From contig CAVWGN010000001.1 in the NCBI GenBank assembly GCA_963754655.1, positions 3,059,269 through 3,123,268 on the forward strand: a stretch of 64,000 nt of DNA. Direction: 5' to 3'. The notes below the pieces were generated by a model. It saw nothing but the letters and a program-made list of their open reading frames with translations, did not search any database and had not been told where the DNA came from. Below are positions 39,497-41,696 of the stretch, piece after piece; within the stretch, counting starts at the first letter, position 1; every line of letters starts with the position of its first letter. The position numbers and the translations under genes are program-made. Origin of the DNA: an uncultured Chlamydiae bacterium (GTDB lineage: Bacteria; Chlamydiota; Chlamydiia; Chlamydiales; Parachlamydiaceae).

Positions 39497-40111
39497 TCTT
39501 AAAGCTTTCTATGTGTAAGCTAAGAGAGGAGCTAAGGCTAAGCGACGCCTTTAGTCGTCGCTGCCGCGGCGCTTCGCTCTTAACTTAACCATAAGAGGTG
39601 TGAAAGTGTCCCAATACGCAAAAATTATAGAGAAGGGCGTCGAATCAATAGAATGGAGGTCCCCCTCCGGGGAACAATTAGATTTCTCGTGAACCCACAG
39701 CTGCGCTTGCGCTTAGGCTGTGGGCTACAAAAAGAATAGCGCCAAGCGCTAAATTTAAGCCTAAAAACACTGTGCATGATCACTAAAGTTCTGCAAATTT
39801 CAATCTCCCAATTGCACAATCACATGTAAGGTCGCTCGAAAGGCAATCATTAATTTTTCTTATGAGAAGAAAAAAAGATCAACATTGTTTAAGATCATAT
39901 TGGGATCAAATGAGATAATTCCAAATTTGCATAACTTTAGTGATCCTTTCACCTTACGCAAGCGAGGTCAAAGAATCAGTGCTATCCCTTAAATAACCAA
40001 ATAGCTTGATTTGTTTAATAGCCTGAAAGGCTTCAAAGAAAATAGCCCAGGGCATCGCCCTGGGGCAGATTGATCCTCTACATGTAGTCTGAAGGACTAC
40101 AAGAGAATCAT

Positions 40112-40327
40112 CTATCCCCAACATGTTTTCATCAAACTTAATTTCATATTTTTTAGAAATTCGCAGTACTCTTTGAAATGTCATTGTTTATGGGTTCTTT
40201 TTGACTCCCTTTTTGTTCGTTACCTTGTACTTTGCCATTGAGTAAGCTGATTAAGGAGGTTAAGCAAGGATCTAACTGGATAAAAACAAATGGGGAATCG
40301 AGTTTGATGAAAACATGTTTGGGATAG
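40112..40327. pseudogene. Two back-to-back relics of an IS200/RAYT-type Y1 transposase gene
   Basis: Plus strand 40211-40294 reads FCSLPCTLPLSKLIKEVKQGSNWIKTNG, then a frameshifted GIEFDE.HVWD; minus strand 40205-40112 reads, with indels, SQKE.HK.MTFQ.EYCEFLKKYEIKFDE.HV. Confidence 0.7.
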
Positions 40328-40382
40328 ATGATTCTCTTGTAGTCCTTCAGACTACATGAAGAGGACCAATCTAACCCAGGGC

Positions 40383-40862
40383 TAGGATGTTCATTTTGTG
40401 CAAAAAATGAGCTTTATTTTTCACAATAATTGGCATAGTTGAATTGAAGGTCGCATGTTTATGCCGTCCTTTCAGGACTCGATGTCTTTTTGATAGAAAC
40501 CCAGGCCTCCGCTTCGCTGCGACCTGGGCTGTAACATGACGGCCCTTCAGGCCTTAACAAGAGATGTTTAAGTCTCTCTTCTATAATCCCTAAATCATCT
40601 TTTTGTTAAGGCCTGAAGGGCCGGCCCTTCAGGCCTTAACAAGAGATGTTTAAGTCCCTCTTCTATAGTCCCTAAACCATCTTTTTGTTAAGGCCTGAAG
40701 GGCCGTCATGTTACAGCCCAGGTCGCAGCGAAGCGGAGGCCTGGGTTTCTATCAAAAAGACATCGAGTCCTGAAAGGACGGCATAAACATGCGACCTTCT
40801 ATTCAACTATGCCAATTATTGTGAAAAATAAAGCTCATTTTTTGCACAAAATAAACACCCTA
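40383..40862. mobile_element. Palindromic MITE-like element A3 (two central units)
   Basis: TAGGATGTTCATTTTG...CAAAATAAACACCCTA; flanks ACCCAGGGC / GCCCAGGGC (8 of 9 identical). Confidence 0.9.
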
Positions 40863-40871
40863 GCCCAGGGC

Positions 40872-41015
40872 CGGGACTTAACAAAGAACTGTTTTTGGGC
40901 TTGATATTCGTCGAGTCAATTTAACAACACACCGCCTTTAACAGGCTGTAGAGGCATATTTTCCGAAAATGACGCGAAAAACATCAAGCCCAAAACAGTT
41001 CTTTGTTAAGTCCCG
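40872..41015. mobile_element. 144-bp MITE-like element B
   Basis: About 33-bp terminal inverted repeats CGGGACTTAACAAAGAACTGTTTT(T)GGGCTTGAT; flanks GCCCAGGGC / GCCCTGGGC. Confidence 0.85.
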
Positions 41016-41696
41016 GCCCTGGGCTATTTTCTTTGAAGCCTTTCAGGCTATTAAATAAATCATGCTATTTGGTTATTTAAGGGATCTCATTGCTTTTTTA
41101 ACCTCGCTTGCGTAAGGTGACTGATCCTGTAAATGCTTTTAGGCTTAAATTTAGCGCTTTGCGCTATTCTTTTGTAGCCCACAGCCTAAGCGCAAGCGCA
41201 GCTGTGGGTTCACGAGAAATCCGGATTGTTCCCCGGAGGGGGGCATCGGTGCTATTGATTTGACGCCCTTCTCTATAATTTTTGCGTATTGGGGACAGTC
41301 TTACACCTCTTATGGTTAAGTTAAGACCTGCTCTTCCTCTCTTAGCGTGATACATATGGGCCTGCAGGGCTATCAATGTCAAATATTTTTAGTCAAATAC
41401 CCTAAGATATGTTGAAAGCTAAGAAAAGATAGAATAGCAACAGTAATAGGAAGAGCATTTGTTGCAAAATTTGTATTCAATCCTAAATTTAATAATCAAT
41501 TTAACAAGTGAAGTACTCGTCATTTCATAAAAATTAATCCAGTAATTTAATACAGAAAATTAATCTTATTCTTGCTTTTTCCTCAAAAGTTTCGGGAAAT
41601 TTTCTATTCCACCTTATTTATTTTTCTTTTTATATTGATCTCAGATTAAGTTTAGATTATTTTAATTTATTATAGGGCCTAGTACTCGAAGGAGGA

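Follow-up and report, generated by a model that had tools for sequence, protein, structure and literature searches.

The locus described here is a stack of nested palindromic elements at positions 39510-41356 of a 64,000-nt window, the whole stretch of DNA that was analysed, from the genome of an uncultured Chlamydiae bacterium of the Parachlamydiaceae. The window corresponds to C1:3059269-3123268; locus coordinates are window positions, coordinates of the form C1:n are positions on the main contig, and features carry a strand only where one is marked. The genome consists of a 3.12-Mb main contig and a 35-kb contig (two contigs, about 3.16 Mb in all), and the 1.85-kb locus occupies the gap between two open reading frames (ORFs), 38360-39496 (+) and 41697-43640 (+). 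A repeat search of 39300-41600 returned 15 nested inverted pairs, with arm identities of 91-100% for palindrome D (39578-39769/41134-41326, in four segments), 92% for C (39949-40053/41016-41120, 105 nt), 89% for F, the inner palindrome of C (40057-40154/40285-40382), 98% for A (40375-40560/40685-40870, 186 nt) and 97% for B (40861-40898/40989-41026). The DNA fold of the focal A copy, A3, was -249.8 kcal/mol compared with -50.4 +/- 4.5 kcal/mol for 100 shuffles (z -44.7), none of which equalled it. The nested imperfect palindromes at 39510-41356 far exceed chance, and a preliminary description of this DNA, which had called the locus almost wholly nested inverted repeats, was accurate in this respect. 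No Pfam match was obtained for the short ORFs inside the locus, which is not itself an autonomous insertion sequence (IS): it has no intact transposase gene, only two Y1 protein fragments being present, of which one contains a stop. Sequence resembling the locus totals 93,223 bases, or 2.95% of the genome; the genome-wide BLAST matches per piece were 422 for the A arm, 747 for the 82-nt core of A, 159 for B, 104-109 for the C arms, 214 for F, 71 for the left E piece, 18-20 for the D arms and one (itself) for the right E piece.

The oldest layer is formed by an E-type module and palindrome D. The left outer end (39510-39580) is an E-type terminal module with a GC-rich hairpin, and the right outer end (41311-41356) is the mirror image of 39510-39590 minus a 39-nt GC-rich hairpin block, which is present on the left outer side and missing on the right. 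When 39497-39660 was aligned to the reverse complement of 41245-41400, the mirror symmetry extended to about 39510 and 41356. D comprises a left arm (39578-39800; inverted pairs I4-I6, I8 and I10), a centre between the I10 arms (39801-39922; 75-76% identical to two other D copies), a first piece of the right arm (39923-39948), which holds a TGATCCT word at 39941-39947, and a second piece (41129-41326), delimited by inverted-repeat pairing and self-alignment. The E family yielded 73 BLAST matches in the genome, many of them inverted pairs about 350 nt apart, and E modules often serve as terminal repeats in elements with a length of about 350-490 bp. The description of D as flanked by family-E repeats stands for the left module, which belongs to this family and agrees with the E consensus at 50 of 65 positions (77%, 39516-39580), but not for the supposed right repeat at 41311-41356, which matches only itself by BLAST. 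The D core has about eight diverged copies elsewhere (75-93% identity), no near-full copy of D occurs elsewhere in the genome, and the outer 60 nt or so have no other genomic copy. Because these outer nucleotides are unique to the locus, E and D cannot be split into two events, and they may represent one old element or two. Thus, regarding the five palindromic elements originally counted, the nesting was confirmed, but C proved to be a shell with a separate core (F) and E and D could not be told apart as events. A second D copy, at C1:2564586, likewise adjoins a C; its junction is shifted by about 30 nt from the homologous position and lacks a duplication, so that it is a composite different from the focal one.

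C (39949-41120) lies within the right arm of D, between direct repeats of TGATCCT at 39941-39947 and 41122-41128, the latter being the right copy of its target duplication. The left arm of its shell (39949-40044) starts with TCACCTTACGCA, contains the hairpin AGCC-TGAAA-GGCT at 40020 and agrees with the consensus at 93 of 96 positions; the right arm (41025-41120; 89 of 96 positions) contains the hairpin AGCC-N5-GGCT at 41037 and ends with TGCGTAAGGTGA. After removal of C together with one TGATCCT, D aligned to its own reverse complement over 587 columns with 81% identity, which bears out the earlier statement that C (there C2) interrupts the right arm of D and that its removal restores the symmetry. 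The C family has 49 termini in the genome (9 pairs and 31 unpaired ends), and the ends TCACCTTACGCA...TGCGTAAGGTGA are constant across copies, as are those of A and B in their families. A shared end word of at least 7 nt was found in five of the nine pairs, compared with a chance expectation of 0.0024 per pair; the words are TGATTTAAG, TCAAGTAA, TTATTAA, TTAGTAA and TGATCCT. The two arms of C co-vary, with a similarity of 0.954 within copies and 0.927 between copies, a difference reached by 2 of 2000 permutations. In two C copies that carry an A element (C1:1214611 and C1:2502788) the arms are 100% and 99% identical within the copy and 95-96% identical between the copies, which points to concerted evolution of the two arms. 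A second stack is present in the window, where C arms at 50123-50230/53038-53132 enclose an A (50241-53027), which in turn contains an 835-bp IS5 (50581-51415) and an IS1182-like IS (51466-52945).

Each half of C carries a GC-rich hairpin. The one in the left half (40045-40065), GCCCAGGGC-ATC-GCCCTGGGG, is intact and is the unoccupied twin of the site in the right half that holds A and B. The right-hand hairpin reads, from left to right, ACCCAGGGC (40374-40382; its left stem and the left copy of the A duplication), A3 (40383-40862), GCCCAGGGC (40863-40871; the right copy of the A duplication, matching at 8 of 9 positions, and the left flank of B), B (40872-41015) and GCCCTGGGC (41016-41024; the right stem and the right flank of B). 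A paralogous C copy at C1:166828-167349 is composed of an arm, GCCCAGGGC-ATC-(9-mer), F, ACCCAGGGC-GAT-GCCCTGGGC and an arm, and shows the intact version of the hairpin that A and B occupy at the locus. The placement of both elements in the hairpin of the right arm of C, as given in the preliminary description, is therefore upheld by a paralogous empty site, though the focal hairpin is short by 12 nt. The standard junction (AATCTA, 9-mer, GAT, 9-mer, TATTT) occurs about 26 times in the genome, and intact 21-nt hairpins consisting of a 9-mer, a 3-nt loop and a 9-mer occur 33 times.

A3 has the ends TAGGATG...CACCCTA and consists of a lineage-specific shell, inner modules and two tandem 82-nt hairpin units at its centre (40540-40621 and 40622-40703). 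The A family as a whole ends in TAGGGTG...CACCCTA and is represented by 180 termini, forming 79 pairs and 22 unpaired ends. Regarding the lengths of the pairs, 44 of the 79 measure 390-396 bp and the longer ones increase in steps of 82 nt (465-481, 550-558 and 639-641 bp), so that the centre is made of a variable number of 82-nt hairpin units, two in the focal copy. The focal arms agree with the consensus at 176 and 175 of 178 positions. As with C, the arms of A co-vary (0.970 within copies and 0.954 between copies; reached by 0 of 2000 permutations), and the resemblance of arms within copies in both families requires mirrored changes. The flanking 9-mers of the 79 pairs are direct in 14, direct and inverted in 2, inverted in 30 and neither in 33. 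At least six A copies repeat one 9-mer of the standard hairpin junction on both sides, with the rest of the hairpin intact after the element (C1:377415, C1:453199, C1:2096088, C1:3015950, C1:412515 and C1:3073639). Two origins of the inverted flanks were considered and rejected: two A copies, one in each host arm, followed by recombination (complete A copies are never within 2.5 kb of each other), and a hairpin already reduced to a single 9-mer when A inserted (no such collapsed junction was seen in the genome). A further host family consists of long terminal repeats ending in ...GACTGCTTCAAAGCCCCGGGG with an interior that is either TTGAATTGGCG... or a complete A element (C1:1409532-1409950); about 14 'empty' sites of this family, such as C1:606570, and several A-filled copies were seen.

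B is a 144-bp palindromic element, CGGGACTTAA...TTAAGTCCCG, with 73 loci arranged in 46 units (25 solo, 17 with two B, 2 with three and 2 with four). The best other copies are 96.5-98.6% identical to the focal one, and most are 91-95% identical. The flanking 9-mers of the 46 units are direct in 14 (8 or 9 of 9 positions), direct and inverted in 8, inverted only in 2 and neither in 22, many of the last being broken composites; the non-palindromic 9-mer GCCCACCGT is duplicated at 9 of 9 positions in three units. By these flank duplications B is a transposable unit that makes 9-bp duplications. B also forms B-G-B(-G-B...) chains, for example at C1:413215-414878 and C1:2972050-2973691, in which it takes turns with G, a unit about 370 nt long; the outer ends of the two-B units (B-G-B, about 656 bp) show 9-bp duplications.

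With 79 A pairs, 73 B loci, 49 C termini and 73 E matches, the families occur apart from each other and do not make up one fixed composite. The ends and 7-9 bp duplications, which had been compared to those of MITEs (miniature inverted-repeat transposable elements), were likewise found, with at least 7 bp for C in five of nine pairs, 9 bp for B and a 9-mer for A in at least six copies. Regarding the relative age of the layers, the identity to the consensus is 98.9% and 98.3% for the A arms, 97.6% and 98.8% for the 82-nt units, 96.9% and 92.7% for the C arms, 92% for F and 77% for the E module, and 91.7% for B, although the computation for B mixed both orientations. The arm-to-arm identity within the locus is 98% for A, 97% for B, 92% for C, 89% for F and 81% for D over its full length. 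Divergence thus decreases from the outer layers inward. The arrangement 9-mer, A, 9-mer, B, 9-mer fits an earlier entry of B followed by duplication of the left 9-mer by A, and does not fit a duplication made by B after A; B before A is therefore the most likely sequence of events, A3 being the youngest layer. We infer the order E/D, then C together with F, then B, then A. The order read earlier, D followed by C followed by A and B, is supported in outline and is refined by the probable precedence of B over A and by the inseparability of E and D.

The interior of C, F (40066-40373), is a decayed Y1 transposase unit with GTAGTC-N5-GACTAC hairpins starting at 40084 and 40339. In a tblastn search with the 150-aa Y1 protein of C1:2542103, residues 61-88 matched 40217-40297 (+) with 23 of 28 identical residues (82%, E-value 4e-11) and residues 120-145 matched 40128-40202 (-) with 13 of 26 identical residues (50%), the latter with a stop. 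The genome contains nine Y1_Tnp matches, seven of at least 111 residues. Inverted GTAGTC-TGAAR-GACTAC hairpins bracket the Y1 genes C1:2542103 (150 aa, HVH motif) and C1:2544251, and the flanks and 3' ends of these genes match F DNA. It is the position of the Y1 remnants between GTAGTC hairpins that identifies the C core as a decayed Y1 transposase unit. A third Y1 gene, C1:395846 (C1:395645-396318), lies between inverted copies of the inner module of A, the hairpins of which are GTCC-TTTCA-GGAC, CCCAGGCC...CCTGGG and GGCC-CTTCA-GGCC. Both cores therefore hold inverted pairs of hairpins resembling repetitive extragenic palindromic (REP) sequences, namely the GTAGTC hairpins in F and, in A, the GTCC hairpins at 40466 and 40767 together with mirrored modules of the Acido-Lenti-1 type at 40500-40554 (+) and 40691-40745 (-). 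The interiors had been likened to REP sequences and to their inverted doublets (REPINs), and this likeness holds more closely than anticipated: the flanking hairpin modules of Y1 genes make up the interiors of both C and A. The Y1 proteins carry the HUH motif (HVH or HIH), and a tree groups them with sequences resembling REP-associated tyrosine transposases (RAYTs), away from the IS200 type; by their motifs, we label them RAYT-like. The genome contains 1035 small hairpins that combine a 4-bp stem with a YTTCA/TGAAR loop, compared with 102 for control loops; the dominant stems are GGCC, GTCC, AGCC and AGTC, and ten such hairpins lie at the focal locus.

Both Acido-Lenti-1-type modules of A3 score 36.4 bits against the Rfam family RF01687, which is below the gathering score of 37. 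Genome-wide, 136 matches were obtained, some of which pass the cut-off with 37.1 to 38.7 bits among the matches listed; the family exists in this genome, the focal copies being borderline. In related genomes the scores rise to 48.9 bits (G005) and 45.8 bits (G007). Among 31 relatives, 14 have a match and 8 a match above the cut-off, with 106 in G007 alone, where most are inverted pairs about 144 nt apart; none of 14 control genomes gave a match. A Y1 gene has an RF01687 match on both sides at G007:C3:1116531 (1116336-1117043) and at G010:C158:3928 (3804-4454). Other Y1 genes have a match within the same distance of about 210 nt, at C1:395846 in this genome (on both sides), at G009:C158:5455, on G015:C30 and G015:C11, and on G016:C141, with a gene fragment on G016:C229; in G005 and G024, Y1 genes and RF01687 matches are on different contigs among the matches listed. 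Modules of the A inner type thus flank intact Y1 genes both here and in five related genomes (G007, G009, G010, G015 and G016). Other genera share only this inner module, at about 80% identity, and not the outer 75-nt shell of A. The flanking of Y1 genes suggests that the orphan Rfam family RF01687 is a DNA element of the REP/REPIN type.

Six autonomous ISs take part in the use of the same hairpins: two IS5 elements, an IS1182-like, an IS481-like and an IS4-family element, and an unclassified one, IS-H; some of the copies counted below may be composite duplicates and not independent events. In 9 of its 10 full-length copies IS-H (1846 bp), the 439-aa ORF of which matches no Pfam or NCBIfam family, is bounded on either side by identical 9-mers of the GCYCWGRGC type. 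All 10 copies of the IS1182-like element (about 1.46 kb) lie in CCTTTCAGG of the GTCC hairpin and duplicate CCTTTCAGG. All six copies of the 835-bp IS5 are located at the CCTGGG stem (five in A arms, one in a C-type hairpin), all five copies of the IS481-like element lie between two hairpins of the A module, and both full copies of the IS4-family element sit on a hairpin loop with GGCATCGCC duplicated. The 843-bp IS5 is flanked by C in 15 and by G in 14 of 16 copies. The picture of a community of elements that target each other's hairpins is supported with regard to the targeting, but the community is not solely non-autonomous, as had been proposed. A search for full-length ISs that share the ends of A, B or C, which had been suggested as a check, found none in this genome among the five IS types compared. 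The autonomous partner with such ends could exist outside this genome. A, B and IS-H have unlike ends and a common GCCCWGGGC target and 9-bp duplication, and IS-H, by its target and duplication length, is the best candidate helper for A and B. A word of 11 nt, TGTGCAAAAAA, is common to the A terminus (40383-40412) and to both ends of an IS256-family IS (C1:263812), at comparable distances from the tip, perhaps by chance or as the trace of a common transposase-binding site.

We consider it likely that the locus arose as selfish, non-coding palindromes inserted into one another in succession. An old E/D palindrome would have been located between two genes; C, composed of a 105-nt inverted-repeat shell and a decayed Y1 core, would have entered the right arm of D and duplicated TGATCCT; B would then have entered the GC hairpin (9-mer, GAT loop, 9-mer) in the right half of C, and A the left 9-mer of this hairpin, which it duplicated. 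As the shells and B make 7-9 bp duplications, the shells of C and A and the element B would have to be moved by DDE-type transposases supplied in trans, and since whole A and C elements carry duplications, at least the shells would travel by a route other than single-stranded DNA. The cores, F and the inner modules of A, would be REP-like hairpin modules belonging to Y1 transposases, which work on hairpins in single-stranded form. Landing pads would be provided by the hairpins; elements that enter them spare the genes, so that stacks could accumulate. Long palindromes are destabilised in E. coli by SbcCD, which cuts hairpins. No match for SbcD was found in the genome by a search that was positive in 13 of 14 control genomes, and SbcC gave only two weak N-terminal (P-loop) matches far below the cut-off. 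It is plausible that the apparent absence of SbcCD lets long palindromes persist here.

Several observations weigh against this reading. Only 16 of the 79 A pairs have direct flanks at 8 of 9 positions or better, as opposed to 30 inverted and 33 neither, and because the flanking 9-mers share six fixed positions such a match is often expected by chance and is weak when taken alone. Thirteen A copies occupy the exact dyad centre of a host palindrome; their flanks are mirrored over 20-34 nt and show no duplication, and a simple model of 9-bp duplication fails to account for them. The CTAG/TA signature of the 843-bp IS5 is likewise compatible with the ends of A (TAGGG...CCCTA, flanked by C and G); regarding such a TA or CTAG target, the arrangement 9-mer-TA-9-mer does not occur in the genome, compared with 33 hairpins that have 3-nt loops, although all sites of this kind could be filled. 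Two insertions into the hairpin should have left four 9-mers and the GAT loop, but three 9-mers and no loop are present; the 12 nt that are gone correspond to one 9-mer and the loop, and the genome yielded no intermediate of a slipped deletion involving the nearly identical 9-mers at a distance of 12 nt. The two A-carrying C copies (C1:1214611-1215214 and C1:2502788-2503390) have duplications of their own and near-identical arms, which means that inner elements can ride along and that nesting alone does not prove an order; the order becomes readable from the nesting only with divergence as added support. None of the five IS types compared has ends like those of A, B or the C shell, the alignment of the first 20 nt being no better than for shuffled sequences. 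The check for empty sites, which succeeded with the paralogous hairpin, gave no orthologous empty site in five relatives. The 378-aa upstream protein has no relative in the genome-contig collection or in these five genomes, and the downstream protein is a member of a multi-copy family (at most 62% identity), so that no orthologous locus is comparable. Finally, no spanning reads are available: fragments of A, B, C and D occur in three soil-metagenome runs, where no contig bridges any junction, and they neither support nor contradict the assembly at the locus. The 27-nt terminus of A had no exact match in the genome-contig and metagenome-contig collections, and a 31-nt word from the end of the upstream gene had none in metagenome contigs, the organism's own genome being possibly absent from these collections.

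Four other explanations were weighed against successive insertion. The palindromes might have spread mainly by recombination or template switching at GCCCWGGGC 9-mers and hairpins, the nesting being the result of module shuffling; we regard this as unlikely, though it has a real claim to attention. All module junctions in the C interior are 9-mers of the GCCCWGGGC type, of the 79 A copies 30 have flanks in inverted orientation and 13 are mirrored over at least 20 nt, 12 nt of the hairpin are gone at the focal A/B site, arms are more alike within a copy than between copies, and no C pair surrounds an empty centre, the shortest of the nine measuring 603 bp. Against it stand the clean direct duplications of GCCCACCGT by B (9 of 9 positions in three units), of C and of IS-H (9 of 10 copies), the duplication of the junction 9-mer by A in at least six copies, and the lack of intermediates, neither two complete A within 2.5 kb nor a collapsed hairpin being found. 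Recombination is probably a secondary process that acts on copies already inserted. There is a much slighter chance that the block is a single composite, built elsewhere, which arrived or was duplicated as a unit and from which no order can be read. The A-carrying C copies with their own duplications show that composites can travel, and the B-G-B units of about 656 bp with 9-bp duplications and the second D copy next to a C also speak for this view; against a single composite, none of the eight other C pairs shares the content or length of the focal one, the C beside the second D is about 30 nt off and without a duplication, divergence drops from the outside inward, and the outer D arms are found only at this locus.

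An assembly artefact, by fold-back chimeras or collapsed repeats, deserves very little credence. The region is made of high-copy repeats and the matching soil-metagenome fragments bridge no junction, as would suit such an artefact; against it, the arms are imperfect (81-98%), each with private changes and indels, C lies only in the right arm of D and A and B only in the right half of C, an asymmetry not expected from a fold-back chimera, and each junction shows the usual family ends and duplications in a genome assembled into 2 contigs. The least probable explanation is that the modules are functional Acido-Lenti-1 small RNAs or terminators under selection and the palindromes a by-product. The module is about 80% identical across genera and its score at the locus (36.4 bits) comes close to the gathering score of 37, among 136 genomic matches of up to 38.7 bits in those listed; this is set against its occurrence on both strands and in mirrored pairs within mobile shells, its position beside Y1 transposase genes in six genomes, and the entry of three IS families into the modules at fixed points. 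Successive insertion of palindromic elements is therefore retained as the explanation of the stack.

Regarding the wider setting, the genome encodes four ATP/ADP translocases, for which a control search gave no match in 14 well-known genomes; this is consistent with an obligate intracellular, chlamydia-like organism. Two of the translocase (TLC) genes are adjacent in the window (5066-8232; C1:3064334-3067500), and a third lies just outside it, upstream, at C1:3051924. A DUF4116-repeat family comprises 57 ORFs, and pentatricopeptide-repeat (PPR), Myb-repeat and leucine-rich-repeat (LRR) proteins are likewise expanded, an unusual set for a bacterium; C1:2163328-2165475, C1:2736645-2739551 and C1:1211906-1214383 are examples from multi-copy ORF clusters. 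Clusters 1 and 2 (457 aa and 303 aa) were examined as possible ISs and were taken as gene families on account of their ragged boundaries.

The stack dates several mobile families of one genome relative to each other and unites elements of the REPIN and MITE types in one unit. It also amounts to a natural experiment on target choice, the same 21-nt hairpin being entered at different fixed points by different enzymes, and transposases that choose one 9-mer or hairpin may serve as site-specific tools. Making up about 3% of the genome, repeats of this kind disrupt short-read assembly in chlamydia-like organisms. Of all the leads, the Y1 link is the most interesting; it suggests a directly testable function for the orphan Acido-Lenti-1 motif. 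We propose tentatively, and with rather more doubt than the insertions themselves, that the Acido-Lenti-1 'RNA' family is the REP-type DNA hairpin module of a RAYT-like Y1 clade and not an RNA gene, and that in this chlamydial family such cores have been packaged in DDE-moved shells, the hairpins of these shell-and-core hybrids acting as landing pads for one another and for at least six ISs. This would be a self-reinforcing system that spares genes, writes dated stacks such as the focal one and persists for want of SbcCD. A search of full-text literature (ISfinder and supplements lay outside it) gave no account of these families or of such stacks in Chlamydiae. New here are the Y1 remnant in the interior of C, the mirrored Acido-Lenti-1-type modules of A that flank Y1 genes, and the six ISs at fixed points of hairpins.

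Among known systems, MITEs resemble A, B and the C shell in their terminal inverted repeats, 7-9 bp duplications, tens of copies and lack of coding capacity. The sizes (A at least 396 bp, B 144 bp) and the lack of Pfam matches in the ORFs are also those of MITEs, with the exception of the Y1 fragments in the F core. Nested MITEs in plants have served to infer insertion preference (Jiang and Wessler 2001, as cited in a passage of PMC10664404), and the nesting of A, B and C exposes a target preference in the same way. Unlike MITEs, A, B and C are near-perfect palindromes throughout, have REP-like cores, use hairpins in other elements as targets, and often have inverted flanks, and no cognate autonomous element with matching ends was found for them in this genome. 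With the REPIN/RAYT systems, REPtrons or TIRtrons (passages of PMC3116915 and PMC3733652) the elements share inverted hairpin pairs in tens to hundreds of copies, the presence of the same modules beside Y1 (HUH) genes, and co-varying arms, mirrored arm changes being reported for REPINs in PMC3116915. In contrast to those systems, the doublets lie inside duplication-making shells, the loops share YTTCA, and instead of one F-type Y1 gene there are two full copies and a partial one. The F hairpin, moreover, begins with GTAG, the bases of which are paired within the stem and do not form an unpaired tag, whereas the definition given in PMC3733652 has an unpaired GTAG or CGTC at one end of the hairpin.

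ISs with REP sequences as their target, among them ISPpu9, ISPpu10, ISPa11 and ISRm19 (Tobes and Pareja 2006, PMC1525189), are similar in that several ISs in this genome insert at fixed points of palindromic repeats; they differ in that six ISs and non-autonomous elements are involved here and that the target hairpins are carried by other mobile elements, resulting in stacks of several levels. The palindromic, MITE-like repeats M1 and M2 of pithoviruses, which form (M1-M2)n-M1 arrays with a putative TA duplication and for which a passage of PMC10664404 gives no known transposase partner, are comparable to the B-G-B chains in the alternation of two palindromic units, in the lack of a known transposase partner and in the amoeba-associated setting, but no sequence relation is detectable and the duplication of B is 9 bp instead of TA. 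The Acido-Lenti-1 RNA motif (Rfam RF01687; Weinberg et al. 2010, PMC2864571), which passages on it in two papers do not connect with transposases, has the same two-hairpin architecture and sequence as the inner module of A; unlike an RNA gene, the module occurs here as a DNA repeat, on both strands, in mirrored pairs and beside Y1 transposase genes.

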